Shown: positions 15,179 through 29,715 of the stretch, one piece after another
Position numbering within the stretch: position 1 is the stretch's first letter
Layout of the letters: each line of letters opens with the position of its first letter
IMG/VR virus record: IMGVR_UViG_3300045988_151351
Location: 128,001-192,000 of that record
Source: a virus
Strand: one strand, 5' to 3'
DNA: 64,000 nt
Program-made: the position numbers and the translations under genes
The notes under the pieces: model-generated
Databases searched by the model: none
What the model was told of the DNA's origin: nothing
What the model saw: only the letters and a program-made list of their open reading frames with translations

Positions 15179-15262
15179 TTTCCGTGATTTGAAATCGAAA
15201 AATGTTTTTCCGTGATTTGAAATCGAAAAATGTTTTTCCGTGATTTGAAATCAAAAAATGTT
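15179..15262. repeat. 3 tandem copies of the 28-bp unit TCCGTGATTTGAAATCGAAAAATGTTTT, each with an internal GATTTnAAATC inverted repeat
   Basis: Direct reading. The third copy has one substitution. Confidence 0.85.
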
Positions 15263-15540
15263 TTGGAGAGAGTTTTGTCCAGCACATACTCAAAAATTAA
15301 AAATAAAAAAATTTTTTCCCATAATACACCCCGGGGTATTTCTAGCTGATTCTGTCCTGAGAAAATATTAGCAGTCTGTTGTCTTGATTTTCACAGAGCA
15401 AGCACAGCTTCATTTATACACCCCCGTCAAATAAAGCACAAAGAGTTTCCCTTACACCTTTAACCTTTCATTATCAATACAAACTCATGCCCCGCTTTGT
15501 GCTAATCAGTTAATCTATCTATCCAGAAGGAGAATGATAA

Positions 15541-15808
15541 TGTTGTCAATAATGCCAATGAATGTATCACGCAAGATTGATACATTAGGTCGAGTAGTTA
15601 TTCCAAAAGGAATCAGAGATACATACAAATTAAATATTGGGGATGAAGTTTATTTCTCTATTCTTAATAATGATGGATAGCAGTATGTGGGCATCAGTAA
15701 AACTAACGAAGACTTAGTGAAATACAAGATAGCAATGTAGGTGCTGCTCGACCTAGATCTTGATGTACCAGAAGAATTAGCAGAGAAAGTTGAGAATATA
15801 ATTGAATA
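15541..15808 (+). CDS. AbrB/MazE-family (SpoVT/AbrB swapped-hairpin) DNA-binding protein, about 88 aa, with 2 TAG codons
   Basis: N-terminus RKIDTLGRVVIPKGIRD is the canonical AbrB-N motif. Frame continues through TAGs to a TAA. Confidence 0.55.
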
Positions 15809-15939
15809 AGCAACTCTCACAATCTCAAGCTACTCAAAGACTGCGAGCACGTGCGCAAGCACGCAATAAGTATAATAATCTATACACATAATGAATAGCA
15901 CATAATAAATAGCACATAATAAATAACACATAATCATCA

Positions 15940-16100
15940 CATCAATAGGCTGCTCGGCGCGCTGGCGGGTGTGGCGCGCCGAGTTTGCGTATTATACAAA
16001 TGTCACAAAAATCTTCTGTGCTTTTTGTACAAAATTATCCCTTGACAGATTTCCCACAATGTGCTATACTATAGATACAGTAAAGGAAAGAGGTATTCAC
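15940..16100 (+). promoter_or_regulatory. composite regulatory element E1: GC-rich hairpin (CTCGGCGCGC...GCGCGCCGAG), A/T tract, then promoter TTGACAGATTTCCCACAATGTGCTATACT
   Basis: First of 7 similar elements spaced about 2 kb apart. Confidence 0.5.
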
Positions 16101-16101
16101 C

Positions 16102-16410
16102 ATGGAAGAAATCAGACGCCGCATGAACATCTTCAGCGCTATCAGCGCAGTCATTGTTGTCCTGCTCATTATCTTGCTCTGCCAGTATATTAAGGCACAC
16201 CCAGCTCAGAATGTCAATAACATCTATGCGAGAAGTGCAACCGTTTGTGAAGTCAATGGCAATGTCCAATTCTACACAGATGACGCGGGCAATGAATGGA
16301 GTACTACAGACGAAAATGTGTCCGTTGGTGACAAGGTTCTTCTGGTAATGAATACCATGGGAACATCACCCATCTGTGACGATGAAATCATCGAGGTTAG
16401 AGCACGCTAA
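16102..16410 (+). CDS. early small membrane protein, 102 aa
   Basis: Own promoter and RBS. N-terminal TM helix. Confidence 0.5.
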   Translation: MEEIRRRMNIFSAISAVIVVLLIILLCQYIKAHPAQNVNNIYARSATVCEVNGNVQFYTDDAGNEWSTTDENVSVGDKVLLVMNTMGTSPICDDEIIEVRAR

Positions 16411-16524
16411 GCAAAGCGTGCTCTTTCTGCATCTGTTAGTCTCCGCACACGATAGTGAGTTCCCGGAACTTCACCAAGCTAAAGTAGTAAAGAAAAATTC
16501 TGTGAAATATTTGCGCAAAAAGGC

Positions 16525-16553
16525 TTGACAAAGCGTTCCCGAAATGCTATAAT
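16525..16553 (+). promoter_or_regulatory. early-class promoter TTGACAAAG-N-TGCTATAAT (representative of about 30)
   Basis: Perfect -35 and extended -10, followed by the conserved leader ACAGATACAAGGTAAGGAAATGAGG. Confidence 0.6.
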
Positions 16554-16588
16554 ACAGATACAAGGTAAGGAAATGAGGTATTACACAA

Positions 16589-16788
16589 TGACTACTATCC
16601 AGGTGCTGTACTCGATTATTATTTGGAGCTTTTCTCTTTTTCTCTGTGCTACGCTTGTAATTAACATGAGAGAGTTTATCAAGACTTCTATCAGTTGGAA
16701 ATACGATTGGCCTGTTATTGTTCTTTGGGTATGCGAGTTGGCCCTGACTGTTATTCTTATCTTAGTCCCATTTATTTTCTTTATGTGA
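16589..16788 (+). CDS. early small membrane protein, about 66 aa, 2 TM
   Basis: ATG after RBS; hydrophobic. Confidence 0.45.
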
Positions 16789-16884
16789 TAGGGAATAACC
16801 CTTATCACATTAAGAAAGATAGTTCTTGACAACTATCACATTCTGTGCTATAATACAGATACAAAGTAAAGAGAGGTAATAATC

Positions 16885-17022
16885 ATGTTTGAGTTTGGTA
16901 TCCTGAACATTAACACTCAGGAAGAAAGAATTATCTTTGGATACAATGGAATTGACGCTTTCCGCAGATACAATCTTGATGCGGCTAAATGGAAAGTTCT
17001 GTATTCTGAATACGTTGATTAA
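16885..17022 (+). CDS. early micro-protein, 45 aa
   Basis: Promoter at 16826-16854 and conserved RBS. Confidence 0.35.
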   Translation: MFEFGILNINTQEERIIFGYNGIDAFRRYNLDAAKWKVLYSEYVD

Positions 17023-17039
17023 GAAAGGGATAAATAAAA

Positions 17040-17201
17040 TGGTTGGTTTGATGAAATACGAATGCGGTCTGAAATTCACTGGTTGTGTCTTTGAGGACAA
17101 AGAAACAGCTGAAAAATTTATTTATGATAATGGACTAAATCCCGAAGCTTATGAGCTTATTCCCGTCGCAGGTTATTTTAAAAATGGTGAAATAAAATAA
17201 A
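17040..17201 (+). CDS. early micro-protein, 53 aa
   Basis: RBS GAAAGGGATAAATAAAATG. Confidence 0.35.
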
Positions 17202-17269
17202 ATTAGGGCTTGACAAACCGCAATCTTCATGCTATAATTAAGACACAAAGAACAAAGGAGATAACAACA

Positions 17270-17464
17270 ATGACTGACAACTACAACACTTACTACAACA
17301 AGCTTATGGGCATGAAGAAAGCGGACATTATCCGCGAAGGTCAGACTTGGGATATTTGGGCGAACTGCCAGAGCACCGCCGCTTGGCTGATGAAACAGTC
17401 TAAGACTTGGCTGGCTGGTGTCCTTGCTGGTCGGCTGTGCCGCTTGGAAAATCGGGGCTACTAA
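17270..17464 (+). CDS. early small protein, 64 aa
   Basis: Promoter at 17208-17240. Followed by a terminator. Confidence 0.45.
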   Translation: MTDNYNTYYNKLMGMKKADIIREGQTWDIWANCQSTAAWLMKQSKTWLAGVLAGRLCRLENRGY

Positions 17465-17480
17465 ACCCCCGATTTTCCGT
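17441..17480 (+). terminator. rho-independent terminator (AAATCGGGG-loop-CCCCGATTTT)
   Basis: Hairpin plus T-run. Confidence 0.6.
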
Positions 17481-17571
17481 TGCGGCTTTGGACTTCTGAA
17501 ATAAACACTTGACAGCCAGCCATTCATGTGCTATAATAAAGGCACAAAGTTAAGAAGTGAGGTAAAATAAA

Positions 17572-17766
17572 ATGCTGTTCATCATCTCTGCTGTTTACTA
17601 CAATTATAGACCTGACGACAATAACCGCTATCGTTGCGAGACTACAGTTGTAGGTCAAGACAATGCCTATGAACTGGGACAGAAATTTATGGACGCTGAT
17701 AATGTTCTTTCAGTGGATATTATTGACGCTATGACTGGTGAGGTGATTGAAAGCTGGACAGAGTAA
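17572..17766 (+). CDS. early small protein, 64 aa
   Basis: Promoter at 17508-17545; ORF; terminator. Confidence 0.45.
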   Translation: MLFIISAVYYNYRPDDNNRYRCETTVVGQDNAYELGQKFMDADNVLSVDIIDAMTGEVIESWTE

Positions 17767-17776
17767 TAAAATACCA

Positions 17777-17815
17777 ATTCAGCGGAATGAACAAATTCCG
17801 CTGAATTTTTTTATT
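17777..17815 (+). terminator. rho-independent terminator (CAGCGGAATgaacaaATTCCGCTG + T-run)
   Basis: Hairpin plus T7. Confidence 0.75.
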
Positions 17816-17849
17816 TATTTTGTCTATTGACAAATCCAATAGAATGTGA

Positions 17850-18044
17850 TAAAATGGGCGCGCCGGCCACAATCGCCACTGGCCGGCATTTTATTATAAC
17901 ATACCGCCAGCCAATTTGTCAAGGGGAAAATCGCACAAATATTACACAAAAAATTCTCCCGAAATTTGTGCGTTTTGCCAATAGACAAACAGAATAGCAT
18001 AGTGTATAATAAAGATACAAAGTTAAGGAACGAGGTAATTCACA
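17850..18044 (+). promoter_or_regulatory. composite regulatory element E2: GC hairpin GCCGGCC..GGCCGGC, conserved box CATTTTATTATAACATACCGCCAGCCAATTTGTCAAGGGG, then promoter TAGACA-N16-TGTATAAT
   Basis: Conserved with E3 and E7. Confidence 0.5.
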
Positions 18045-18212
18045 ATGACTATGAACGCACTTGCTGAGAAATTGTCCGCATGGCTCGACCGCTATGGCTG
18101 GGATGATGAAAGCCTGAATAATTTTGCCAACATCCATGCGACTTCCTACGAAGAATACAATGCGATTTGGGAAGTTTTGGAAGAACTGAAAAAAATGCGT
18201 GATGGGGATTGA
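18045..18212 (+). CDS. early micro-protein, 55 aa
   Basis: Conserved RBS. Confidence 0.4.
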   Translation: MTMNALAEKLSAWLDRYGWDDESLNNFANIHATSYEEYNAIWEVLEELKKMRDGD

Positions 18213-18269
18213 CAAAGTCCCCATTCCATGCTATAATAAATATACAAATTAAGAAAGGAATTGAATACA

Positions 18270-18488
18270 ATGGATTTCAAGAAAATGAGCGCAGGTGCAG
18301 CATTCGGCAAAATTCTTTACACAGTTGGCAAGTGGTTCGCAACTGCCGCTTTGATCTGGTGGGGCTGGAACATTTTTGCCTGGCACTTTGATCTGCCGCA
18401 GTTCGAGTACATGGAAATCTTTGCCATGCGTATGGCTCTGACCTGTATCATGAAAATTTTCTGGCAGAGAACTGACAAAGGGGATTGA
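18270..18488 (+). CDS. early small membrane protein, about 72 aa
   Basis: Promoter at 18210-18245. Trp-rich TM. Confidence 0.45.
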   Translation: MDFKKMSAGAAFGKILYTVGKWFATAALIWWGWNIFAWHFDLPQFEYMEIFAMRMALTCIMKIFWQRTDKGD

Positions 18489-18545
18489 CAAACAATCCCC
18501 CATGTGCTATAATAAATTCAGAAATTAAGAAAGGAATTGATAATA

Positions 18546-19007
18546 ATGAAAGCAACAGGAATTATCCGCAGAATTGATGAATTGGGGCGCGTAGTTATCC
18601 CCAAGGAAATCCGCCGCACTATCCGAATCCGCGAAGGTGACCCGCTGGAGATTTTCGTTGAAGGTGGCGCAGTCATTTTCAAGAAATACCAGACAATGGG
18701 AAATCTTGAAACTCAGTGTAATGTGCTTTGTGACACATTCCAAAAAATGTCCAGTGCGTGCGCAGTCTTTGATACTGATGGTGAATTGTTCGCGTCAAAT
18801 TCACAGTTCCGCTTTGCCTTTGCCGCCAACATGCCCAAGTTGCCGAAAGATTTAATTGGTTGCCGTGAAATTCTTGAACGCAATCACATGATTTTCATGC
18901 CAATTATCGCTGATGGGGAAATACTGGGAACTCTGGCAGTTGAAACCGATAACCGCGAAATGGTTCAATTTGCGGCAAGAAATTTGGCTGAACAGTCGAA
19001 AAATTAA
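18546..19007 (+). CDS. SpoVT/AbrB-family regulator, about 153 aa: AbrB-N domain plus a C-terminal GAF-like domain
   Basis: RRIDELGRVVIPKEIRRTIRIREGD is the AbrB-N signature. Length and architecture resemble SpoVT. Own promoter at 18484-18520. Confidence 0.6.
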   Translation: MKATGIIRRIDELGRVVIPKEIRRTIRIREGDPLEIFVEGGAVIFKKYQTMGNLETQCNVLCDTFQKMSSACAVFDTDGELFASNSQFRFAFAANMPKLPKDLIGCREILERNHMIFMPIIADGEILGTLAVETDNREMVQFAARNLAEQSKN

Positions 19008-19069
19008 GTCTTGACAAACCAGCCGGTCTATGATACAATAATGATACAAAAGAAAGCGAGGTACTTACA

Positions 19070-19228
19070 ATGAAAATGGTTATCTTCACTCTGGTAATTG
19101 CTATCCTTGTCATTGACTGGCTGGTTGCTATTTTGGAATTTGCTACCGGTCACAAGAAAAGCATTGTTGATGTTATCATCCGTTCATTCCTTCTTTTTGC
19201 CGTGCCTTTTATCGTCCAGTGGTTCTAA
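19070..19228 (+). CDS. early micro-membrane protein, 52 aa
   Basis: Promoter at 19010-19045; hydrophobic. Confidence 0.4.
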   Translation: MKMVIFTLVIAILVIDWLVAILEFATGHKKSIVDVIIRSFLLFAVPFIVQWF

Positions 19229-19374
19229 CTACTGGGCGATAAAATTCACTATTGACAAAATAATAAAAATGTGATATAATAATTATACAATAAAAAAAGG
19301 AATTGATAACATGAATTTTCTATTCAATTTGCCTATTGACATTTTTGATTGCGTATGCTATAATTAAATGATAA

Positions 19375-19568
19375 GAAAATTGCAGCCGCCCGCCGACGTT
19401 TGCCAGCCCCGGTATTTCCATTATAACACCGGCCAGCCATTTTGTCAAGCGAAAAATTGAACAAAAATGAAAAAATATTTGATCCCGAATTTGTGTATTC
19501 TACCAATAGACAAAAAGAAAAACAGGGTGTATAATAAGGGTACAAAGTTAAGGAATGAGGTACTTGAA
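19375..19568 (+). promoter_or_regulatory. composite regulatory element E3 (GC-rich segment, box CCATTATAACACCGGCCAGCCATTTTGTCAAGCG, promoter TAGACA..TGTATAAT)
   Basis: Conserved with E2 and E7. Confidence 0.5.
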
Positions 19569-19748
19569 ATGAGTAAGCGTGAAATGGTCCGCATGATTAA
19601 CGACCGCACTGGTGAAATCGTTGACAAGTTTTTTGATGATTCCGCCGATGCTGATGATCTTGAATTTCTTCTGGACATGATGCAAGTCCATTATCAGCGG
19701 TGGAGCGATGGCGAAATTCTTTATGAAGAAAATGATACAAGGGCTTGA
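19569..19748 (+). CDS. early acidic micro-protein, 59 aa
   Basis: RBS AAGGAATGAGG. Confidence 0.4.
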   Translation: MSKREMVRMINDRTGEIVDKFFDDSADADDLEFLLDMMQVHYQRWSDGEILYEENDTRA

Positions 19749-19806
19749 CAAACAAGCCCCCTATGTGATATAATCAATACAGAAATTAAGGAATGAGGTA
19801 ACTACA

Positions 19807-20019
19807 ATGAAGAACTTCACTATTGACGCTTACATCAAACAGCAGTTGATTTTTGCTGAGACTATGCCTACCGATGCCGAACTGTTCGAGCACAACGCTC
19901 TTGGCGCTATCGAGTGGGATGCTTATGTAAATGGCACTAACCCCGAACTTGAGCGCCGTTGGACTGAAAACTACAAACCCGCCTTTGAAAAGATTATTCG
20001 GGGGGTTTTCCATGGATGA
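19807..20019 (+). CDS. early small protein, 70 aa
   Basis: Promoter at 19745-19780. Confidence 0.45.
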   Translation: MKNFTIDAYIKQQLIFAETMPTDAELFEHNALGAIEWDAYVNGTNPELERRWTENYKPAFEKIIRGVFHG

Positions 20020-20212
20020 TCTGAAAAAAGGGACTTGTAAGGATTTTACAGCGTGGGACTTAAACTGTCCCCGCTATGTAAAACCTGACAACAAACTGAG
20101 AAAAAAATTCGTGCGGAAATATCGCAGAAATTCAAAACTGGCTCTTGACAAACAGGTAAAAACGTGCTATAATCAAGATACAAAAACGGAAAGGAATGAA
20201 AACAATGATTAA
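20014..20212 (+). CDS. basic K/R-rich micro-protein, about 66 aa; its coding sequence overlaps the next promoter
   Basis: ATGGATGA overlap with the preceding stop. Confidence 0.25.
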
Positions 20213-20675
20213 AGAAATCGTATTCGACATGGACGGAACTATCGCTGACCTGTATGGCGTTGAGAACTGGCTGGAAATGCTGAGAACATCCGACCCGACC
20301 CCGTATGAAATCGCAGAACCCCTGATTGACATGGCAGAACTTGCCAATCTGCTTTCCCAGTGTCGTGTTATCGGGATTGAAATTTCCGTGGTAACTTGGC
20401 TGAGCAAGGTTTCCACTCCCGACTATGATAAAGCGGTGAGAAAAGCGAAAAAAGAATGGCTGAACAACCATGATTTTCCTTTTGACCATTTCCACGGAGT
20501 CAAGTATGGAACACCGAAACATCAGGTAGTCAAGCAGGAACTTCCAAAAGATGGAACAGCACTGATTTTCGATGATGACGCGCGAGTGCGGAACGCTTGG
20601 ACGCTTGGCGAAGCAATCGACCCCACAAAAGAAAATATCATTGAAATCCTGCGGAATATTTTGGAAGCGCGCTAA
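20205..20675 (+). CDS. HAD-superfamily 5'(3')-deoxyribonucleotidase-like hydrolase, about 156 aa
   Basis: Motif I FDMDGTIADL (DxDGT). Size and layout match the phage NT5C-type nucleotidase family. Confidence 0.55.
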   Translation: MIKEIVFDMDGTIADLYGVENWLEMLRTSDPTPYEIAEPLIDMAELANLLSQCRVIGIEISVVTWLSKVSTPDYDKAVRKAKKEWLNNHDFPFDHFHGVKYGTPKHQVVKQELPKDGTALIFDDDARVRNAWTLGEAIDPTKENIIEILRNILEAR

Positions 20676-20788
20676 GCGCTTCCAAAGAAAGGAAATAATA
20701 AAATGAATGACGAACAGCTTGACATTTTGCTTGAAGAAGCAACAGACATTAAAATTTTGATTGCCTTGGGCTGAAAGGATGGGTAAAA

Positions 20789-21079
20789 ATGGAAACAAAG
20801 TTTATTTGGGTAGTTAATTTTGGCGATAATGATTTTGATGATTTGAATTGCGCATTTGACAATTTCAAAACTGCAAAAGAAGCAGTACAGACAATTTTTG
20901 GCAAGGTTTCCGCAGTAAACCCTGCTTGGCAGAATTTTAAGCTGGAAGATGAAGACACTGAAAATGAATGGGCAGTCTATGCATTTGACTATGTTGATGA
21001 AGACGCCCACCTTTTGGTAAATCCTCACATTGACATTGTCGTAGCTCCAATACCTTACAATTCTCTTCCTATTGATTGA
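20789..21079 (+). CDS. early small protein, 96 aa
   Basis: Intact ORF followed by a terminator. Confidence 0.45.
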   Translation: METKFIWVVNFGDNDFDDLNCAFDNFKTAKEAVQTIFGKVSAVNPAWQNFKLEDEDTENEWAVYAFDYVDEDAHLLVNPHIDIVVAPIPYNSLPID

Positions 21080-21120
21080 AAATTTTGGGAATCCAGATTT
21101 TGGATTCCCAATTTTTTTTC
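21079..21120 (+). terminator. rho-independent terminator (GGGAATCCAGATTTTGGATTCCC + T8)
   Basis: Perfect hairpin plus T-run. Confidence 0.8.
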
Positions 21121-21139
21121 GATTCATTTTTTGGAAATA

Positions 21140-21595
21140 GTTGTAAAATGACAGCCGCGCGGTCACGATTGTGTGGCCGCGCCATTTTGTCAAGAGGGAA
21201 TACTCACTAATTTTTTGAGCGGATTTTTGTGCATCTTGCCAATAGACAGAAATCCTGAAATGTGGTATACTCTATAATGTCAAGGGGAGAGAATGAAAAA
21301 AACTTTATCTCCCTCGTGGGAGATTAGGTGTCAGTCAGTCCCACCCACTCGAAAAAAAATGTAAAAAACCCCTTGACAAACCCCACGGAATGTGGTACAA
21401 TAAAGACGTCAAGAGGGAACAGCGATTAAAAAGTGCTTGGTATCATTAGCCGGGCTACACAACTTCCGCGGTTCGTGTGTAAAAAAAATAAAATTCCCTC
21501 TTGACAAACAGCTCCTGATGTGTTATAATCAATACAGAAATTAAGGATAGGGGAAACGATGGTAAGCCCCATCCAAAAGAAAGGAATTACCAAAA
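21140..21595 (+). promoter_or_regulatory. composite element E4 plus a cluster of three tandem promoters, each followed by a short hairpin transcript whose 3' arm overlaps the next -35
   Basis: Promoters at about 21247-21275, 21372-21400 and 21483-21512. Hairpins GTCAAGGGGAG../..CCCCTTGAC and CAAGAGGGAA../..TTCCCTCTTG. Confidence 0.5.
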
Positions 21596-22252
21596 ATGCC
21601 CAAAAATATCTACTGTACGCTGGACACTGAGACAGTCGGTGGCAGTTCTAACCCGACCGGAATGTATAACGCGGGTGCTGTCATTCACGACAAGGATGGT
21701 AACATTTTGGCAACAACTTCCATCCTTATCATGGAACATTATGACAGCATCAACAAAGACGATTATGCTAAGAAGCATTTTCCGATCTATGAAGCTCGTT
21801 TGACAAGTGGCACAATTTCCGCGGTAGCTACCGAAGCCGAAGCTGTATCCATCGTGCGCAACCTCTGTCGGTTCTATGGTGTAAAGTATGTTATGGCATA
21901 CAATAGCTGTTTCGATTTCATTAAGACACCTTTTGCCGCGCTTCTAGATGAATTTGAGTTTATCGACCTTTATTTGATGGCTTTACAGACCATCACGCAC
22001 CAGAAAGGCTTTGACAAATTCTGCCATGAAAATAATTTCGTTGCGCGAAGTGGCAGGTCTTGCGCGACGGGTGTTGAAGCGGTCTATGCCTACATCACCA
22101 GAAACCCCGACTTTGAAGAAGAACACACCGCACTTTCTGACGCACTGAATGAAATGGCAATTTTTGTTAAGTGCTATTCGCTCCATAAGCGCTTTACCAA
22201 AAACTGCCACCAGTGGAATTGCCACGAAAATAAAATGTTCCCCAAGTGGTAA
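21596..22252 (+). CDS. DEDDh 3'-5' exonuclease (DnaQ/RNase T-like), 218 aa
   Basis: Exo I CTLDTETVG, Exo II YNSCFDF and Exo III HTALSDALNEMAIF motifs. Confidence 0.6.
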   Translation: MPKNIYCTLDTETVGGSSNPTGMYNAGAVIHDKDGNILATTSILIMEHYDSINKDDYAKKHFPIYEARLTSGTISAVATEAEAVSIVRNLCRFYGVKYVMAYNSCFDFIKTPFAALLDEFEFIDLYLMALQTITHQKGFDKFCHENNFVARSGRSCATGVEAVYAYITRNPDFEEEHTALSDALNEMAIFVKCYSLHKRFTKNCHQWNCHENKMFPKW

Positions 22253-22320
22253 AAACCACTTGACAAACCCAATCAAATGTGATATAATCAATACAGAAAT
22301 TAAGAAAGGAATTGAATACC

Positions 22321-22824
22321 ATGACTAGAATTAACTTTACCGATGCCGCTAACCTCGCCGAAGCTGTTTGCCGCGTGAAGGAACTCTTTGGCACTAACCC
22401 CTTTACTTCCAAGGAATACAACACTAACCGCCCCAAGGGTATGGCACTGCTCAGCACTCTTGAAAATCATCACATTGTCACCATCGTCAAGACTGAGACT
22501 TTTGAAAAAGAAGTTAATTCTTGCTATGGCGCGGAATACGTTCTGAATGCTAACAATGAAAGTATCATGAAGCTGGACGATTTCAAGGCTCTGCCGCAGT
22601 CTGTTCAGGAAATGATTACCAAGGCGGCAGGTGGGATCCACATCGAACACCGCGACGTGGAAACAATTACCTGTAAGCGGTATTATTACCAGTTCAATCC
22701 GGAAGCCTATGAAAAGTATCTGAGCAACCGCGTGACTGAGTGGAAAATTGCCCTCTGTAAGAAACAGGAAAAGCTGGAACAGCTTTCCAAGGAAATCGCG
22801 GCTCTGAAAAAAATTGTCGGCTGA
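22321..22824 (+). CDS. early protein with C-terminal coiled coil, about 167 aa
   Basis: Promoter at 22258-22295. Confidence 0.45.
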   Translation: MTRINFTDAANLAEAVCRVKELFGTNPFTSKEYNTNRPKGMALLSTLENHHIVTIVKTETFEKEVNSCYGAEYVLNANNESIMKLDDFKALPQSVQEMITKAAGGIHIEHRDVETITCKRYYYQFNPEAYEKYLSNRVTEWKIALCKKQEKLEQLSKEIAALKKIVG

Positions 22825-22834
22825 GAAAATTAGT

Positions 22835-23008
22835 GCTTGACAATCGCCGCAAAGTGTGATACAATGTAAGTGTTCCAAGGGGAGATGAACTTCTCCCCAA
22901 GGACACGAAAAAAAATTCAAATTAGGTATTGACAAGTCGAAAGATTTGTGATACAATATATTCATCAAGTGAAGGACACACTTAAAAAACCAGAAAGGAA
23001 TTGATACT
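22835..23008 (+). promoter_or_regulatory. tandem promoter pair with an intervening perfect hairpin CCAAGGGGAGATGAACTTCTCCCCAAGG, and a leader shared with the paralogous cassette at 27960-28059
   Basis: TTGACAATCG..TGTGATACAAT and TTGACAAGTCG..TGTGATACAAT. Leader GTGAAGGACACACTTAAAAAACCAGAAAGGAATTGATACTATG is identical at both cassettes. Confidence 0.55.
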
Positions 23009-23371
23009 ATGGCTACTAAGATGACTAAGAAGGATTGCTTCACCGCTCTGCTCCAGATGGACGAAGTCCAGTCCAACCAGACTCTCGTGGATTTCATCAA
23101 CCACGAACTCGAACTGCTGGCGAAGAAGAACAGCGCCGAAAAGAAGCCGACCGCGACCCAGCTCGCCAATGATGGCTTCAAGTCCGCGATTCTCGCTCAC
23201 ATGAGCATGACCCCTGACCAGCTTTTTACCATCACGGAACTGATTAAGTCTGTGCCGGAGATTGCCGACCTGACCAACCAGCGTGTCAGCGCGATTGTCG
23301 GTCAGATGGTAAAGGCTGGAAGCCTTGTCCGTGTTGACGACAAGAGAAAGGCTTTCTTCAAGGTGGCGTGA
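23009..23371 (+). CDS. family-X protein, 120 aa; paralog of 28060..28440 and 44401..44808
   Basis: Shared blocks include HELELL.KKN....KKPTATQ.ANDGFK and LFTITELIK.VPEIADLTNQRVSAIV.QMV..G.L.RV. Confidence 0.5.
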   Translation: MATKMTKKDCFTALLQMDEVQSNQTLVDFINHELELLAKKNSAEKKPTATQLANDGFKSAILAHMSMTPDQLFTITELIKSVPEIADLTNQRVSAIVGQMVKAGSLVRVDDKRKAFFKVA

Positions 23372-23414
23372 CCGGATGGGGGCTTTTGCCCCCACTTCCG
23401 AAAGGAGGTAAAAA

Positions 23415-23774
23415 ATGACAGTCGAAGAACTCGCCCAGCGGTTGAACATTTCAGTCGATGAAGCGCGACAAGTCCAAGAGGATGACAAACGCATTGACCA
23501 CGGTGAAAAGTTATTTGAATTGCCGCCGGAGCTTGAAGCAGGAGCGAAAAAAGCAAGACAGACCGGAACGCGCAAGGTCACAGAGGTTAAACGAGAGCGC
23601 AAACCCGACGAGGACAAGCGCGAACTCATCCAGTATTTGGAAGGCAAGCTCGAAGATGCCCACCATTACGACATGGATTTGGATAACATTACCATTACCA
23701 ATCCAGAGCGAGAAATGGAATTTACTTACAATGGAAAAAAGTACCGGCTGACGTTGGCTTGCCCCAGAAAATGA
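23415..23774 (+). CDS. family-Y protein, 119 aa; paralog of 28493..28897
   Basis: Shared D.GEK..F.L.PE.E...KK....GTRKV and C-terminal Y.LTL...RK. Confidence 0.45.
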   Translation: MTVEELAQRLNISVDEARQVQEDDKRIDHGEKLFELPPELEAGAKKARQTGTRKVTEVKRERKPDEDKRELIQYLEGKLEDAHHYDMDLDNITITNPEREMEFTYNGKKYRLTLACPRK

Positions 23775-23780
23775 CAAAAG

Positions 23781-23818
23781 TTCCTCCCAGAAAATGGGAG
23801 GAACTTTTTTACCCAAAT
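23781..23818 (+). terminator. rho-independent terminator (TTCCTCCCAGAAAATGGGAGGAA + T-run)
   Basis: Hairpin plus T6. Confidence 0.75.
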
Positions 23819-23824
23819 TATTTG

Positions 23825-23991
23825 GAAATAGATGGAAATTCGGCCGCGCGACCACAATCCAGTGGGCGCGTCATTTTTGTCAAGAATAACATTCAACAAA
23901 TTTTCTGCACATTTTTTGTGTATTCTGACTGTTGACTTTTCTCCCGAAAAGCTTTATACTATTGGTACAAGGCTAAGGGAGGAAACACCTA
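23825..23991 (+). promoter_or_regulatory. composite regulatory element E5 (GC hairpin, TTTTTGTCAAGAAT box, promoter TTGACTTTTCTCCCGAAAAGCTTTATACT)
   Basis: Same architecture as E1 to E7. Confidence 0.45.
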
Positions 23992-24165
23992 ATGAATATT
24001 GAAGTAAATACCGAGCATCTAACTGAGTGCATTGAAAGTTGGGTCGAGACATTTGATGATTGTGCTTGTTGTCCTCTGATGTTCGACTGCCAAGAGGATG
24101 AAGATATCCGAGGCATTGACTGTATTGAATGCAGTGAAAAAATTATTGATTGGTTAAAGGCTTGA
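23992..24165 (+). CDS. Cys-rich micro-protein, 57 aa (CACC..C..C..C)
   Basis: RBS GGGAGGAAAC. Confidence 0.4.
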   Translation: MNIEVNTEHLTECIESWVETFDDCACCPLMFDCQEDEDIRGIDCIECSEKIIDWLKA

Positions 24166-24219
24166 CAAGATAACCCTATTGTGATACAATAGGATTATCA
24201 AAAGAAAGGAATTGATACA

Positions 24220-24354
24220 ATGGATTTAGCTATTATTATTTTAGGTGCTCTCTATCTCTGCGGGGTTAAAGTTGGCACAGCACTTGCAATCTGTGCTATT
24301 ATTGAAGGTCTTTTCATTATTATCAGTGCAATTATCAGAAAATTAAATGAATAA
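24220..24354 (+). CDS. micro-membrane protein, 44 aa
   Basis: Promoter at 24160-24197; hydrophobic. Confidence 0.4.
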   Translation: MDLAIIILGALYLCGVKVGTALAICAIIEGLFIIISAIIRKLNE

Positions 24355-24416
24355 GGGCTTGACAAACAAGCCCTATTGTGCTATAATTGATTTATCAAAG
24401 GAAAGGAATTGATACC

Positions 24417-24749
24417 ATGAATAAAAAAAATAATGAGAATTTAAAAAGAGTATTAAATCTCTTGGACGACCTTATTTCTGATGAAGTAGAAGAACGAACC
24501 GCAGAACTTGAAAAGGAAGTTTCTCATTTTAAATGTTCAAGTGCCCGATATAGGGATATAATTAAATTCCTTGTTAGAGAATCTAAACTTGATATTCCTG
24601 CTAAAACTGCCGAAGCCTTGGAAGAATTTAAGAATGCAAAAGAGTGTGATAGTAGAAATGGTTATTCTACTTATACAAGCTATACCAATCGAAAAGGTTA
24701 TGTTTATGAACAATATGAAATGATTAAAAAAATTTGTAATAGGGCTTGA
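24417..24749 (+). CDS. early small protein, about 110 aa
   Basis: Promoter at 24358-24395. Confidence 0.45.
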   Translation: MNKKNNENLKRVLNLLDDLISDEVEERTAELEKEVSHFKCSSARYRDIIKFLVRESKLDIPAKTAEALEEFKNAKECDSRNGYSTYTSYTNRKGYVYEQYEMIKKICNRA

Positions 24750-24802
24750 CAAACAAGCCCTATTGTGCTATAATAAAGACACAAAGAGAGGAGATGTAAT
24801 AA

Positions 24803-25009
24803 ATGAAACACAATAAATGGTTTGTGGCTTGTCTTGGTTGTCTGATGGTTAGCGTAGTTCTCGGCGGTTTGGGAATGATGTTGGGCGTTCTTGCCTGTGT
24901 GGCTTGTGCGGGCGGATGTTTCGTTAAGTGGCTTTTCGAAGAAGATAAATACCAGCGCGCAGAACACCAAAAATATTTGGAAAGTTTGAAAAAAGGGCTT
25001 GACAAATAA
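24803..25009 (+). CDS. small membrane protein, 68 aa
   Basis: Promoter at 24746-24783. Confidence 0.45.
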   Translation: MKHNKWFVACLGCLMVSVVLGGLGMMLGVLACVACAGGCFVKWLFEEDKYQRAEHQKYLESLKKGLDK

Positions 25010-25059
25010 CTACTTTGATGTTATAATAAAGATACAATAAAGGAAAGGAATTGATACCA

Positions 25060-25239
25060 TGAAACATTTCCATTGTCCGGTAAATGGTTGGGATTGCCCC
25101 TATTTCAAAAATGAAACGATAATCAATGGTCAGAAAGAAACCTGCATTTGTAGTCTGGAAAATCCGATGGATGACTGCGATGATTTTTACAGCATGTGGG
25201 GTGATTGCGAACCTGATGATTATACAGATGATAATTAAG
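25060..25239 (+). CDS. Cys-rich acidic micro-protein, 59 aa
   Basis: Promoter at 24996-25033. Confidence 0.4.
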
Positions 25240-25271
25240 GGGAAATTTCCCCTAGGAAAGGAATTGATACC

Positions 25272-25559
25272 ATGTTAGATAAAAATACGGAAGAAATGCT
25301 GAAAGGCATGACGGACAGTGAAATCGCTACATTGATTGGTCTTGCTTATAGAGAAAAGCAAAACAGAGATGAAGCAAAAAAAACAAAATACATGAACGCA
25401 ATTAACAAGGCTATTCAGGATTATCTGGATAATGTTGGAGATTTAACATTCCATGTTGAGTATGAAGATGAAGATGGTCAGGACGCGGAAACTGACATCA
25501 CCGTAGATAATACAAATCCGCCTGCTGGTGGTAATGGAGTTATTTATATTAAGGAGTGA
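25272..25559 (+). CDS. early small protein, 95 aa
   Basis: RBS only, no own promoter; co-transcribed. Confidence 0.45.
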   Translation: MLDKNTEEMLKGMTDSEIATLIGLAYREKQNRDEAKKTKYMNAINKAIQDYLDNVGDLTFHVEYEDEDGQDAETDITVDNTNPPAGGNGVIYIKE

Positions 25560-25636
25560 AAAAATAGCACAAGGGGCTTGACAAAGTAAGCCTCTTGTGC
25601 TATAATTGATTTATCAAAAGAAAGGAATTGATAAAA

Positions 25637-25876
25637 ATGACTCTCGGTATGATTAAAAATGTAATCGGCATTGTAAAAGGTTCGTTAATGTTTTATGATG
25701 GAAATGGTGTTGAAGTAATAAATGAAAATACCTGTGGTCGCTATCTCAAAGATCGCAAAGGCCGCATGACCTTGAATGGAGACCTTCTGGACACAAGTGA
25801 AGAATGGATGCTGGGATTACCTGTAACTGGTTTGAAAGCCAAAAATAATACCCTTATCATTTACGTTGATGGCTGA
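25637..25876 (+). CDS. early small protein, about 79 aa
   Basis: Promoter at 25576-25613. Followed by terminator 25877-25912. Confidence 0.45.
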   Translation: MTLGMIKNVIGIVKGSLMFYDGNGVEVINENTCGRYLKDRKGRMTLNGDLLDTSEEWMLGLPVTGLKAKNNTLIIYVDG

Positions 25877-25912
25877 AAATAAAATCCAGAGGGCTATGCT
25901 CTCTGGATTTTT
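25877..25912 (+). terminator. rho-independent terminator (AAATCCAGAG..CTCTGGATTTTTT)
   Basis: Hairpin plus T-run. Confidence 0.75.
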
Positions 25913-25914
25913 TA

Positions 25915-26088
25915 AAATCTATTAATTTTTCAGTCTCGCGCCCACGGTCCAAGCGCGAGGATTTTTAGATTTTAAACACATTACACAATTTTTTCGGGCA
26001 AAATTTGTGTAAAATAACAGTTGACATTTTTCCCGATACCTGTTATACTATAATTGTTCCAAGAGAGAACCAGTAAGGAGAATGAACA
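25915..26088 (+). promoter_or_regulatory. composite regulatory element E6 (hairpin CTCGCGC..GCGCGAG, promoter TTGACATTTTTCCCGATACCTGTTATACT)
   Basis: Same architecture. Confidence 0.45.
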
Positions 26089-26304
26089 ATGAAAAGATAT
26101 AGAATTACAGATGATGTTGTCGCTGATTTGTTGAACTTCTATTGCGAGGGTAAGCCTGCCGTTTGGAATTGGTTTTTTGGATGGCGCGGCGGACATTGGG
26201 ATACAAAAGGGAATCTAGTTTATTGCGATTACATTGTTTCTGATAAAATTCTGAATCAAGCAATCACATTAGCAAAAAGATTTTCCGATCGGCTTGACAA
26301 ATAA
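26089..26304 (+). CDS. early small protein, 71 aa
   Basis: RBS AAGGAGAATG. Confidence 0.45.
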   Translation: MKRYRITDDVVADLLNFYCEGKPAVWNWFFGWRGGHWDTKGNLVYCDYIVSDKILNQAITLAKRFSDRLDK

Positions 26305-26354
26305 ATAAAAATATGTTATAATAATTATACAAATTAAGAAAGGAATTGATAACA

Positions 26355-26540
26355 ATGACAATGTATAAACGGGAAGTAAAATATAAGTGGCTTTGGTGGA
26401 ATGGACGTGGTAGTTATGTTCTTTCTGATGAAACTGAATGGATGAGTGAAGAAGAAGCAAAAGAAAAGAACATCAAAACCTATGATACTGGTTTACAATG
26501 TTGTAGAGAATATGAAAGATTTATTCCGATAGAAAATTAA
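26355..26540 (+). CDS. early small protein, about 61 aa
   Basis: Promoter at 26293-26330. Confidence 0.4.
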   Translation: MTMYKREVKYKWLWWNGRGSYVLSDETEWMSEEEAKEKNIKTYDTGLQCCREYERFIPIEN

Positions 26541-26559
26541 AAAGAAAGGAATTGATACC

Positions 26560-26970
26560 ATGACTGAAATTAAGACCTATAAATGTGATTTCTGCGGGCA
26601 GGTGTTCGACGATGAAGCAGAGTGTATTCGTCATGAATGGAAATGCAGATATGAGGATCTGCGTAGAACAGAAAATTGCGAACCGCTGAAGCTGTTCGAC
26701 CTTGAAGACAAGGAAATTGAGGGATTTAATTATCCTAAATGTGATGAAATTGGTGCGATGGAAATTCATTCCTACGCTTGGGCACAATTCATCAATGATT
26801 ATTTTGATGAAATGGGTTATGAAGTTCCCATTAGAATCGTAGACGGAGAGGTTGAACGCTATGGTCTGTGGTATTATGACCCTGAATATCGCTATGGCGA
26901 GTGGCGATCTTATGAAGAAGTGCTTGAAGATATTCAGAAAATTGGAAAGAAATTTAATCAAGGGGCTTGA
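26560..26970 (+). CDS. early protein with an N-terminal C2H2/zinc-ribbon-like motif, 136 aa
   Basis: CDFCGQVFDDEAECIRHEWKC. Confidence 0.45.
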   Translation: MTEIKTYKCDFCGQVFDDEAECIRHEWKCRYEDLRRTENCEPLKLFDLEDKEIEGFNYPKCDEIGAMEIHSYAWAQFINDYFDEMGYEVPIRIVDGEVERYGLWYYDPEYRYGEWRSYEEVLEDIQKIGKKFNQGA

Positions 26971-27024
26971 CAAGCCCCTTGACCTGTGATATAATTGATT
27001 TATCAAAAGAAAGGAATTGATACA

Positions 27025-27300
27025 ATGAATAAACAGGTTATTTTCATGGACAACGAGGGAACTGTTCAGGCAGGCATCTGGAATCAGGACAGGGATGAAA
27101 TTATTTGCGGTTGTTGTGGCGCAACAATCGAATCGGGCGATTTTGTTCTGCTTCACATTTATGACGAATGGCTGAATATCACCGATGAAATCTGCGGAGA
27201 TGATGGAGATATTCTTCATGAGATTGAAGAAAAGGTTGACCGTCTGACCACTTCTGAAATTGAAGCTATTCTTGATGGAAAGAAGGAATTTAACGTATGA
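27025..27300 (+). CDS. early small protein, about 91 aa, with CGCCG..C..C
   Basis: Promoter at 26967-27005. Confidence 0.4.
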   Translation: MNKQVIFMDNEGTVQAGIWNQDRDEIICGCCGATIESGDFVLLHIYDEWLNITDEICGDDGDILHEIEEKVDRLTTSEIEAILDGKKEFNV

Positions 27301-27605
27301 AATTTCTTATTAAGGTTATCGCTAAGTGGTTCAAAGACAGAAATTGCGCGTTTGCTATTTATGGCGCGGATGGCTCATGCATTGAAAGTGCAAATACTGT
27401 ACCGGAAAAGAATTTTTTCCCACCGAAGACAAATCAAATACGGAAAAATGGTGATGATTGGTATTCATTTCCAATCAATGCCAACGGTGAATATTGCGGT
27501 TGTGTCTGCTGGCTTGAAGATACCAGCGAAGAAGCATGGATAGAATTTTACGATGTAATTAACATCTGCCAAATTCTGGAAACCGCGTGCGAAGTTGAGG
27601 AATAA
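27297..27605 (+). CDS. early small protein, 102 aa
   Basis: ATGA overlap with the preceding gene. Terminator at 27590-27625. Confidence 0.45.
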   Translation: MKFLIKVIAKWFKDRNCAFAIYGADGSCIESANTVPEKNFFPPKTNQIRKNGDDWYSFPINANGEYCGCVCWLEDTSEEAWIEFYDVINICQILETACEVEE

Positions 27606-27639
27606 ATTTCCTCAACTTTTTTCGCCTTTTTAATTGGGA

Positions 27640-28059
27640 ATTTTTGGGCGCGGCGCCCACGTATGTAAGGCGCCGAATTTCCATTATACCACCCCGCCAG
27701 CAATTTGTCAAGAGAAAAGTTATACAAAATAATCTTTTTATTTTATCCCGTTTTCGTCATTTTGCCAATAGACTTTTCAAGGGGTATCTGCTATAATACA
27801 TAATGTCAGGAGGGAATGGAGAGTTCCCAAGCGGTTAAAAAAACTTTTGGGAATTGAAAATTTCCTCTTGACAAAGCCCACACGATGTGGTATAATAAGG
27901 GTGTCAATGAGGGGCGGCTAAGTCCTGCAGGCTGAAAAAGATTTTAGAATTTTTGGGAAAAAATTCGCCAAACCTCTTGACAAGCCCCACAAAGTGTGGT
28001 ATAATCTAAATGTAATTAAGTGAAGGACACACTTAAAAAACCAGAAAGGAATTGATACT
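27640..28059 (+). promoter_or_regulatory. composite element E7 plus a triple tandem promoter-hairpin cluster, paralogous to 21140-21595 and 22835-23008
   Basis: Box CCATTATACCACCCCGCCAGCAATTTGTCAAGAG. Promoters at about 27775-27805, 27880-27910 and 27975-28005. Confidence 0.5.
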
Positions 28060-28440
28060 ATGGCTAAGACTACTTCCAAGCTGACCAAGCGCGACTACTT
28101 CAACATTCTCCGTGAAGCGTATCCGCAGACCGCGGACAACTATGACGCAGTTATCGGTTTCATCGACCATGAGCTGGAACTGCTTTCCAAGAAGAACGCG
28201 GCTGACAAGAAGCCGACTGCCACGCAGGTGGCGAACGACGGTTTCAAGACCTCGATTAAGGCGGTGATGTCCGCAGAACCGACCCGTCTGTTCACTATCA
28301 CGGAACTGATTAAGACTGTTCCGGAGATTGCCGACCTGACTAACCAGCGTGTTTCTGCTATCGTCCGGCAGATGGTAACTGATGGCACGCTCGACCGCGT
28401 TGAGGAAAAGCGGAAAGCCTATTTCCGCATTCACCAGTAA
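28060..28440 (+). CDS. family-X protein, 126 aa; paralog of 23009..23371
   Basis: See 23009. Confidence 0.5.
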   Translation: MAKTTSKLTKRDYFNILREAYPQTADNYDAVIGFIDHELELLSKKNAADKKPTATQVANDGFKTSIKAVMSAEPTRLFTITELIKTVPEIADLTNQRVSAIVRQMVTDGTLDRVEEKRKAYFRIHQ

Positions 28441-28492
28441 TTGCCAATCGGGGCGGAGCAATCCGCCCCACCCAGAAGAAAGGTGGAATTAA

Positions 28493-28897
28493 ATGGCATT
28501 AAAGGAAAAAGACAAGCAAGCGTGGATTGACAAAAATATGAAACTCATGGGCTGGACGCAGGAAGAAGCGGAAAGTGTGTGGGAAGCCGACCGCGCTATC
28601 GACAAAGGCGAACGTGTTGATTTTGACTTGTCACCAGAACAGGAAAAAGAAGCCAAAAAATATATGAACGCGGGAACGCGCAAAGTGCCGACAAATTACA
28701 AATTTGACCAGCGCAAGCGTAAAGAAAACCCGACCAAAGCCGGAATTATCGCAGAATTAGCAACTTTTTTGGCTGAAAACAGCGAAAATGCGTGCGAAAA
28801 CGTGGAAATTACAAACAAAGAGCGCATGATTGCGTTCAAAGTTGGTGAAAATTGCTACGAATTGACGCTCACGCAGAAAAGAAAGCCAAAAAGTTAA
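28493..28897 (+). CDS. family-Y protein, 134 aa; paralog of 23415..23774
   Basis: See 23415. Confidence 0.45.
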   Translation: MALKEKDKQAWIDKNMKLMGWTQEEAESVWEADRAIDKGERVDFDLSPEQEKEAKKYMNAGTRKVPTNYKFDQRKRKENPTKAGIIAELATFLAENSENACENVEITNKERMIAFKVGENCYELTLTQKRKPKS

Positions 28898-29683: not shown

Positions 29684-29715
29684 AAAAGAGGGCATTAGCC
29701 CTCTTTTTTTTGTTC
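29683..29715 (+). terminator. rho-independent terminator (AAAAAAGAGGGCATTAGCCCTCTTTTTTTT)
   Basis: Hairpin plus T8. Confidence 0.8.

Follow-up and report, generated by a model that had tools for sequence, protein, structure and literature searches.

The 64,000-nucleotide stretch analyzed here (positions 128,001 to 192,000 of the IMG/VR virus record IMGVR_UViG_3300045988_151351; hereafter the window) stems from a large uncultivated phage and carries seven composite regulatory elements, E1 to E7, each placed behind a terminator and at the head of one of the successive transcription units of a putative early region. A 35-nt box found in three of them reads, on the minus strand, as a perfect sigma-70/sigma-A promoter pointing backwards at a GC-rich hairpin. 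With the copies found in related phages, the full order of the cassette is a terminator (T1), an optional sense promoter facing the hairpin (P(+)a), a hairpin of about 27 nt, the antisense promoter (P(-)), an A/T-rich spacer and a weaker second sense promoter (P(+)b). Judging by this layout, we regard the elements as operon-boundary modules, i.e. terminator or insulator combined with restart, of an early region that would be read by the host polymerase, a view that we hold with about as much doubt as conviction.

Seven elements and their promoters

By aligning the seven elements, first proposed by a reading of the letters alone (the sequence-only reading), we found that all of them match over approximately 200 nt within 15.94-27.8 kb, and that their start-to-start distances of 1.5-2.7 kb agree with the spacing of about 2 kb given there. 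A covariance model of the hairpin and box (R1), made from related copies and scored over the 64 kb with filters off, gave exactly seven plus-strand matches, namely E1 to E7 (E7 77 bits, E3 47, E2 37.6, E6 21.2, E1 20.8, E5 16 and E4 12.9). The remaining R1 matches in the window were about 25 ordinary plus-strand promoters, aligned to the promoter half in reverse with the hairpin deleted. The elements have a common order, consisting of a T-run terminator, a GC-rich segment, (C)ATTTTGTCAAG, an A/T-rich spacer of about 50 nt, TTTGTG(C/T)..TTGCCAATAGACA, a 17-bp spacer and TATAAT/TATACT; the TTTGTG-N-(-35) motif occurs in the window only at the elements. The composite make-up originally described was hence found in all seven as regards upstream terminator, GC segment, A/T spacer and promoter, with the reservation that the GC segment folds into a hairpin in six of them and not in E3. 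The parts are as follows, with the type of evidence in brackets (positions refer to the window).

E1, 15955..15981, unstranded: GC hairpin, 27 nt, CGGCGCGC-loop-GCGCGCCG (-30.8 kcal/mol, z -3.8)
E1, 15990..15995, minus: antisense-promoter remnant, -10 (ATTATA), -35 gone (model and alignment)
E1, 16042..16070, plus: forward promoter P(+)b, TTGACA-17-TATACT with TG (promoter scan)
E2, 17776..17815, unstranded: terminator T1 of the upstream operon, terminator-like on both strands (terminator scan)
E2, 17827..17855, plus: sense promoter P(+)a, TTGACA-17-TAAAAT, directed at the hairpin from 6 nt away (2-4 nt in relatives)
E2, 17862..17887, unstranded: GC hairpin, GCCGGCCA-loop-TGGCCGGC (folding)
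E2, 17893..17922, minus: antisense promoter P(-), i.e. the box, TTGACA-18-TATAAT, 12/12 with TG (promoter scan)
E2, 17768..17887, minus: predicted antisense RNA of about 120 nt (-42.8 kcal/mol, z -4.3; ends inferred from promoter and terminator positions)
E2, 17915..17989, unstranded: inverted repeat, TTTGTCAAGGGGAAAATCGCACAAAT / ATTTGTGCGTTTTGCCAATAGACAAA, with a divergent promoter on either side; putative operator or UP region
E2, 17982..18010, plus: forward promoter P(+)b, TAGACA-17-TATAAT (promoter scan)
E3, 19336..19364, plus: sense promoter P(+)a, 12/12 (promoter scan)
E3, 19385..19413, unstranded: GC-rich segment, hairpin homolog without fold (-5 kcal/mol, z = +1.2)
E3, 19420..19448, minus: antisense promoter P(-), i.e. 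the box, 12/12 (promoter scan)
E3, 19507..19535, plus: forward promoter P(+)b, TAGACA-17-TATAAT (promoter scan)
E4, 21085..21120, unstranded: terminator T1 (terminator scan)
E4, 21157..21182, unstranded: GC hairpin followed by CATTTTG, terminator-like on the plus strand (scan and folding)
E4, 21186..21197, minus: antisense promoter, -35 end only (TTTGTCAAGAGG), -10 and spacer deleted (alignment)
E4, 21243..21271, plus: forward promoter P(+)b, TAGACA-17-TATACT (promoter scan)
E5, 23776..23812, unstranded: terminator T1 (terminator scan)
E5, 23842..23872, unstranded: GC hairpin followed by CATTTTTG (folding)
E5, 23877..23884, minus: antisense promoter, -35 end only (TTGTCAAG) (alignment)
E5, 23932..23960, plus: forward promoter P(+)b, TTGACT-17-TATACT (promoter scan)
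E6, 25886..25913, plus: terminator T1, CCAGAG..CTCTGG then ATTTTTT (read from sequence)
E6, 25935..25959, unstranded: GC hairpin followed by GATTTTTAGATTTT, without flanking promoters (folding)
E6, 26021..26049, plus: forward promoter P(+)b, TTGACA-17-TATACT (promoter scan)
E7, 27594..27622, plus: terminator T1, GTTGAGG..CCTCAAC then TTTTTT (read from sequence)
E7, 27651..27675, unstranded: GC hairpin, CGGCGCC-loop-GGCGCCG (folding)
E7, 27683..27711, minus: antisense promoter P(-), i.e. the box, 12/12 with TG (promoter scan)
E7, 27769..27797, plus: forward promoter P(+)b, TAGACT-17-TATAAT (promoter scan)

The sequence alignment confirmed that E2, E3 and E7 have the box in common, which on the minus strand is CTTGACAAA-N-TGnTATAATGG. 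The promoter scan scored it 12/12 with a TG extension in all three (17922-17893, 19448-19420 and 27711-27683, with spacers of 18, 17 and 17 bp, respectively), and these are the only minus-strand promoters among 24 perfect ones in a region where all genes lie on the plus strand. Transcription is predicted to start about 7 nt beyond the -10. The other elements display different stages of erosion: a deletion of approximately 25 nt has removed the -10 and spacer in E4 and E5, which retain only the TTGTCAAG end, E1 keeps only the -10 (ATTATA), and nothing is left in E6. The TTGACA -35, 6/6 in E2, E3 and E7, is kept in 109 related elements, and 159 of 167 related copies of the antisense promoter have a 17-bp spacer. 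Moreover, when the bare box pattern was scanned against 185,579 bacterial genomes, it was found at no fewer than 120 loci in bacterial metagenome-assembled genomes (MAGs); among the matches listed, almost all were plain promoters without a GC hairpin, which marks the box as a generic promoter. As for the forward promoters P(+)b, the TAGACA-like -35 originally ascribed to all elements holds for E2, E3, E4 and E7 (TAGACA/TAGACT), with TTGACA or TTGACT found in E1, E5 and E6.

The second motif, TGTCAAG(A/G)GG, had been counted at least 10 times. Exact TGTCAAGRGG occurs only seven times (0.1 expected; three on the plus and four on the minus strand), and a count of 11 is reached by the looser GTCA[AG]G[AG]GG with its complement. 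Its presence at the +1 of tandem promoters was borne out: in the arrays that follow E4 and E7, GTCAAGRGG has its G 6-8 nt past the -10, at the predicted transcription start. Between 15.9 and 28.1 kb, CTTGACA is found 22 times on the plus strand and TGTCAAG six times, five of them at elements and one at a +1. By sequence, then, TGTCAAG(R)GG is the complement of the extended -35 (CCYCTTGACA) of about 22 forward promoters, and four of the seven exact matches are forward promoters read from the other strand.

Both motifs had been put forward as operators, bound by AbrB/SpoVT proteins that gate seven early operons. Two AbrB-type open reading frames (ORFs) are indeed present in the region, as indicated by a domain match (18546-19007) and an N-terminus read from the sequence (15541-15810), the region of the AbrB N-terminal domain is conserved at the DNA level in several relatives, and the elements do head transcription units. 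However, conservation within the box coincides exactly with a minus-strand -35, TG and -10 at 17-18 bp, its spacers differ among copies and phages, its pattern is that of a generic bacterial promoter, and the core matches partly dissolve into forward promoters as just described. E1, E4, E5 and E6 furthermore have no box, and nothing connects the AbrB/SpoVT proteins to either sequence. Both the box and the core thus appear as promoter parts, and we consider the operator proposal poorly supported and quite improbable.

The setting suggests transcription by the host. The region between 15.9 and 29.7 kb has a G+C content above that of its flanks, holds many very small plus-strand genes with ribosome-binding sites of the AAAGGA(A/G) type, and contains 74 promoter-like sites, compared with 34.5 +/- 5.9 in shuffles. 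The 24 perfect promoters (12/12, TTGACA-17/18-TATAAT with TG extension) are located between 15 and 29.5 kb. By analogy with the hyperplastic regions of SPO1 or T4, this would be an early region transcribed by the host sigma-A/sigma-70 polymerase. The gene strand switches to plus from about 13 kb, where the cumulative GC skew also has its minimum. Furthermore, TAG appears to be read as sense in this phage. Among 25 tRNA genes at 48.6-58.7 kb there is a suppressor tRNA with a CTA anticodon (58653-58727), and the minus-strand genes at 0.6-13 kb (599-12997) give long ORFs (350-580 aa) only with TAG as sense, having 3-9 in-frame TAGs each. The AbrB-like ORF at 15541-15810 has two in-frame TAGs, located after the DNA-binding domain, and the early region has none, which is consistent with the published stop-codon recoding of late phage genes.

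The element region gave no match in a megablast search against 50,697 phage records, and only chance-level matches to it were found in Rfam 15 (gathering threshold over the whole window, permissive E-values over 15.8-28.1 kb).

The cassette in related phages

Relatives were identified first by a DNA pattern and then around homologs of the winged-helix protein encoded behind E7. The first pattern, GCCAGC-N2-3-TTTGTCAAG, was too loose (119 loci, mostly chance, with about 22 real relatives). In a total of 68 related loci (1.22 Mb), 194 R1 matches were obtained at E <= 1e-6, typically several per 10 kb. Since 188 of these share the strand of the genes, the cassette faces the same way with respect to them almost without exception. 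Both inward promoters flank 57 of the unique GC hairpins, only P(-) is present at 51 and only P(+)a at 40, and two have the opposite orientation. The sense promoter is found 2-4 nt to the left of the hairpin and the antisense promoter 7-9 nt to the right, so that the predicted sense start falls within the 5' arm of the hairpin and the predicted antisense start at its base. With the two -10 boxes about 38 bp apart, simultaneous occupancy of P(+)a and P(-) would be impossible given standard polymerase footprints. A backward promoter might serve divergent operons, an explanation that we rejected: in one relative (L057), the genes on both sides run as they do in the window.

Geometry is also kept downstream. 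In 50 of 103 elements, exactly 64 nt separate the -35 of P(-) from that of P(+)b, and the A/T-rich spacer of about 58 bp between these promoters carries TTGCACAAA/TTTGTGCA, with AGAAAATTTGCACAAATTT, TTTTTCCCG and ATTTGnnTATTTTGCCAATAGACA as conserved spacer motifs in the relatives. Being element-specific and of fixed geometry between divergent promoters, TTGCACAAA...TTTGTGCA would make a better candidate operator than the box.

In distant relatives, DNA similarity is limited to the elements and a few genes, with the intervening genes mostly unconserved at this level. A close relative allows individual events to be followed. This locus (L120), about 96% identical to the window, differs from it by indels or replacements that affect small genes as a whole, singly or in groups, and its indels end in repeated promoter and ribosome-binding-site sequence. 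One indel (22289-22835) lies between two promoters with a 30-nt overlap, another (25637-26958, E6 included) between two 60-nt promoter and ribosome-binding-site repeats with a 66-nt overlap, and a third (21288-21407) corresponds to one small RNA unit, deleted in the relative, with the end points of the deletion at the repeated GTCAAG motif. There is also a 754-bp insertion directly behind the promoter at 24162-24190 (window 24191-24200), in addition to several replacements. Further sites of difference are 17027-17189 and 20777-21080.

These data bear on whether the repeats lack a regulatory role of their own, being only a recent segmental duplication or a selfish promoter-bearing repeat. Recombination between repeats clearly occurs, and the region has paralogous gene pairs (23009-23774 and 28060-28897). 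However, architecture, spacing and orientation are the same in phages whose winged-helix protein is merely 26-61% identical to that of the window, the hexamers stay at consensus as spacers and stems change among copies and phages, and the elements are conserved at the DNA level where the intervening genes mostly are not. The related contigs are not near-identical strains, and the comparative data largely refute this explanation, which is poorly supported and, of those weighed here, the one we would least expect to be true.

Possible roles of the cassette

In the six window copies that fold, the GC hairpin has stems of 7-10 G/C pairs and energies from -12 to -31 kcal/mol, and it is exactly 27 nt long in 111 of 160 promoter-flanked hairpins from the relatives. 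The stem covaries strongly: 87% of cells are paired, a share that falls to 65% in shuffles and to 29-41% when the register is slid, and double changes occur in all eight pairs. Pairs are almost purely Watson-Crick, with G-U wobbles at stem positions 1-8 numbering 12 and 13 on the two strands. Invariant positions are C1, C6, G7, G22 and G27, and the loop, mostly of 9-13 nt, keeps CG at 12-13 and YG at 16-17 on the gene strand. The sense strand following the hairpin is T-rich (4.1-5.5 T per 10 nt versus a background of 29%). An intrinsic terminator would have a loop of 3-8 nt and a U-tract directly adjoining the stem; among the window hairpins, only that of E4 passed the terminator consensus scan.

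According to the boundary-module reading, T1 and the GC hairpin with its T-rich sense tract would stop transcription arriving from upstream, and the strong head-on P(-), whether occupied by polymerase or active, would block residual read-through. P(-) would also compete with P(+)a, because their footprints overlap, and would give a short, hairpin-capped antisense RNA starting exactly at the hairpin base. For E2, this RNA would be about 120 nt long and end at the bidirectional terminator, comprising a 5' GC hairpin, a middle hairpin and T1 in reverse with a U tail; the RNA predicted for E7 likewise has a stable fold (z -4.9). P(+)b would then restart transcription, probably under a phage DNA-binding protein recognizing TTGCACAAA/TTTGTGCA. 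Lastly, the cassettes, along with the simpler per-gene promoters, may as repeats serve as recombination sites by which small genes are shuffled.

Several points weigh against this reading. All of its functional steps are inferred from sequence. Intact P(-) is found in only three of the seven window elements and P(+)a in two, meaning that some copies at least can do without the antisense promoter. A P(+)a that fires at a hairpin 2-4 nt away is without clear purpose in a boundary. The loops are longer than is usual in intrinsic terminators, the conserved CG and YG of the loop would be superfluous in a plain terminator, and copies of the E7 type have a short T-tract after the hairpin (AATTTCC). 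Finally, the wobble pairs, being without strand bias, imply that the hairpin could act as DNA rather than RNA.

One alternative is that the 27-nt palindrome is itself a protein-recognized core, either as DNA (a cruciform or dyad) or as an RNA hairpin, which the flanking promoters transcribe or open. Variants of this are a winged-helix target, a source of bulk decoy RNA from one or both promoters, and a recombination or replication site. The strict length, the invariant stem and loop positions and the near-pure Watson-Crick pairing all agree with it, as do the presence of the same hairpin type within sense small RNAs and the finding of 47 hairpins of 27 nt in the relatives without any flanking promoter. 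The candidate protein partner is only putative, however, and the highly variable stem sequence argues against sequence-specific recognition of the duplex. Constant orientation and a T-rich sense tail suit a transcriptional role, and a 12-kb stretch is unlikely to hold seven or more origins or sites of recombination. On balance we find recognition of the palindrome by a protein possible, if rather unlikely. Just as tentatively, the palindrome and its inward promoters could be an undescribed multi-copy phage device, yielding abundant hairpin RNAs or an opened dyad to be recognized by a phage or host protein, e.g. the winged-helix protein. Such a device could serve as a programmable operon gate, an RNA-polymerase or defense decoy, or an anti-termination or processing signal, instead of as a passive terminator.

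Another alternative is cis-antisense control by countertranscripts, in which the P(-) hairpin RNA would pair loop-first with the complementary hairpin of a sense RNA and cause cleavage or termination. The sense partner would be upstream read-through or the P(+)a RNA, and differing stems and loops would make each boundary self-specific, as in lambda OOP/cII or IS10 RNA-OUT/RNA-IN. On promoter and fold predictions, structural features of a cis-antisense RNA are present, namely an opposite-strand promoter, a transcript that would overlap the sense unit and a stem-loop. The face-to-face promoters at constant distance in 57 elements, the phasing of the P(-) start to the hairpin base (7-9 nt), the long loops and the variable yet paired stems speak for countertranscripts, and the predicted E2 antisense RNA resembles a complete small RNA with its own terminator. 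Nevertheless, one partner promoter is absent in many elements (51 and 40), an RNA starting at P(+)a within the 5' arm would be unable to form the full complementary hairpin, and P(+)b transcripts would escape control entirely. We therefore give this explanation a minor chance, and retain the boundary module as our preferred one.

Other candidates for the hairpin were dropped. A mimic of CRISPR repeats does not agree with stems that differ among copies of one genome. A lambda-type nut/boxB or Q-type anti-termination site is at odds with a hairpin upstream of the gene promoter, a backward promoter without target and a P(+)a start within the stem. N4-type hairpin promoters, protelomerase sites, attC-like sites and replication origins would not fit in copy number, geometry or orientation.

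Known systems and neighboring features

Phage early regions with composite promoter/stem-loop cassettes have been described before, notably with the promoter-early stem-loops (PeSLs) of T4-type phages, which are associated with gene-cassette indels (Arbiol et al. 2010, PMC2839356; Comeau et al. 2014, PMC4122927). Both types are repeated composites in which a near-consensus sigma-70 promoter, preceded by an A/T-rich region, is joined to a G/C stem-loop, both are concentrated among small, poorly conserved (ORFan-like) genes, and in both the indels between close relatives end in the repeats. The PeSL stem-loop acts as terminator or attenuator, and a terminator role is predicted here; recombination at PeSLs also gives rise to mini-circles. 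Unlike PeSLs, the present elements add a backward consensus promoter at the stem-loop, often with a second promoter facing it, and have a fixed 27-nt, long-loop hairpin and a second downstream promoter at a fixed distance. A text search of the PeSL paper gave no mention of an antisense or bidirectional feature. The phage, moreover, is uncultivated and TAG-recoded with Firmicutes-type signals, and its lineage is unrelated to the T4-type phages; the resemblance is of kind, not of descent.

Face-to-face promoters with transcriptional interference are exemplified by pR/pL of coliphage 186, as cited in PMC3675496. The convergent promoters are, as they would be here, near enough for the stronger to suppress the weaker and lie beside a regulator-binding region. 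The 186 pair forms a single lysis/lysogeny switch in which both promoters drive genes, whereas the pair described here recurs many times per genome, with -10 boxes about 38 bp apart across a palindrome and a backward promoter without a gene. IS10 RNA-OUT is an antisense RNA regulator. A short antisense RNA is also produced in lambda, i.e. OOP from the pO promoter (PMC5869508, PMC3985674). The likeness consists of a short antisense RNA with a stable stem-loop, whose promoter faces the 3' or 5' end of the sense unit; the difference is that pairing and effect are demonstrated there and predicted here, where the copies are many and their stems differ. The host-takeover genes of SPO1 have strong sigma-A promoters. 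Together they form a module of clustered small early genes (PMC6873191). Dense arrays of small early genes, a consensus sigma-A promoter per group, strong ribosome-binding sites and terminators are shared with the region described here; no sequence relationship to SPO1 was found. To our knowledge, SPO1 has not been described as having antisense promoters next to GC hairpins. In our literature search, we found no description of elements that combine a consensus promoter, always antisense and directly beside a palindrome of fixed length, with frequent face-to-face promoter pairs and a fixed spacing to the following promoter, throughout a clade of uncultivated phages.

For large, uncultivated phages of gut and rumen in which stop codons are recoded, transcription maps made by experiment are not known, and the present analysis supplies a testable map of an early region, with about 25 host-type promoters within 14 kb and boundary cassettes that recur in more than 60 related genomes. 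It also extends promoter/stem-loop-mediated gene shuffling, hitherto a T4-type trait, to an unrelated phage group. A consensus promoter that always points against the genes and into a hairpin of fixed length, in many cases with a second promoter opposite it, has no ready explanation. If it does insulate operons or make countertranscripts, the cassette would offer synthetic biology in Gram-positive bacteria a compact insulator of natural origin, as well as a marker for early regions in metagenomic phage genomes.

The genes of candidate regulators in the region are the following.

15541..15810: AbrB-like ORF, N-terminus AbrB-like (read from sequence)
18546..19007, plus: SpoVT/AbrB-domain protein (Pfam MazE_antitoxin/SpoVT-AbrB, 3.4e-11)
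23009..23371, plus: winged-helix paralog 1, candidate regulator within the E4 transcription unit
28060..28440, plus: winged-helix paralog 2, first gene behind E7

The winged-helix paralogs belong to a duplicated two-gene module (23009-23774 and 28060-28897), which encodes a winged-helix protein of 120 or 126 aa and, at 23415 and 28493, a protein of 119 or 134 aa with an N-terminal helix-turn-helix. The copies have about 77% DNA identity in places, and each is found behind tandem promoters and a conserved hairpin in the 5'-untranslated region (AAGTGAAGGACACACTT); relatives hold two or three copies. The paralogs form an unannotated family of about 2,800 proteins. Their C-terminal winged helix was predicted with good confidence (predicted local distance difference test score, pLDDT, 87.5), and the nearest solved folds are DNA binders of the MarR/ArsR/Fur type, with weak scores (E ~0.01). 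No function was obtained from PHROGs or Pfam for the winged-helix protein or its partner, a sequence search of the PDB gave no match, and tblastn of the winged-helix protein against the 50,697 phage records returned one weak match, to an unannotated 16-kb fragment. In most relatives, an element is located 300-700 nt upstream of the winged-helix homolog. Given this constant position, the winged-helix proteins may be autoregulators, and the gene is at least as good a regulator candidate as the AbrB/SpoVT proteins.

Small structured units are found at the tandem promoters behind E4 and E7, as listed below.

Unit 1, 21279..21377, plus: stem of 5' GUCAAGGGG and CCCCUUGAC, the latter being the -35 region of the promoter that follows (z -4.1)
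Unit 2, 21408..21505, plus: 12-bp closing stem, GUCAAGAGGGAA / UUCCCUCUUGAC (z -5.2)
Unit 3, 27805..27872, plus: 13-bp closing stem with the -35 of the next promoter (z -6.0)
Unit 4, 27903..27981, plus: closing stem with the -35 of the next promoter (z -2.6)

GTCAAGRGG is complementary to CCYCTTGAC in the -35 region of the next promoter and thereby closes units of 68-99 nt with stems of 9-13 bp. In the relatives, R and Y of the closing stems change jointly, e.g. GTCAAGGGG with CCCCTTGAC and GTCAAGAGG with CCTCTTGAC, and stem position 7 is occupied by 26 A-T, 9 G-C and 2 G-T pairs. The units had no Rfam match and no obvious terminator. A further small non-coding unit of the GUCAAGRGG type is located at 22873-22905. 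Ordinary per-gene promoters with the -35 inside a local hairpin (GGGCTTG-acaaa-CAAGCCC) occur at 24354-24377, 24738-24764, 19739-19761, 25564-25603 and 26956-26984; here the end of a small gene carries a stem-loop that overlaps the next promoter, which is PeSL-like.

An eighth boundary, beyond the range reported originally, was found at 29690-29830. It consists of a terminator, a promoter of the TTTTGCCTATTGACA type and a small structured RNA, in which AATTCCCGATC...CCCATATG comes after a 28-nt GC hairpin (29774-29801). A similar tail (ATTTTCCGATCGGTA..CCCATATGC) is situated behind 27-nt hairpins in several relatives, and the small-RNA form of the GC hairpin also occurs together with AUUUCCGAUCGG...CCCAUAUG.

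The cassette-bearing phage contigs L201, L239, L243, L248, L276, L280 and L284 were binned in MAGs labelled Clostridia or Bacilli, and these bin labels give a weak hint of a Firmicutes host. Other matches of the box pattern, mostly plain promoters, came from contigs with Saccharibacteria or Patescibacteria as their label. The early region is flanked by three tandem repeats, close to the point at about 13 kb where the strand switches and the GC skew is lowest. They are found at 15179-15264 (28 nt x 3.1, 98% identity), 15885-15934 (14 nt x 3.6) and 30636-30695 (10 nt x 6), and could be iteron-like or regulator sites. Lastly, a RAGATH-33 RNA was identified inside the tRNA array (55754-55866), with a score of 137.9 bits that exceeds the Rfam gathering threshold.

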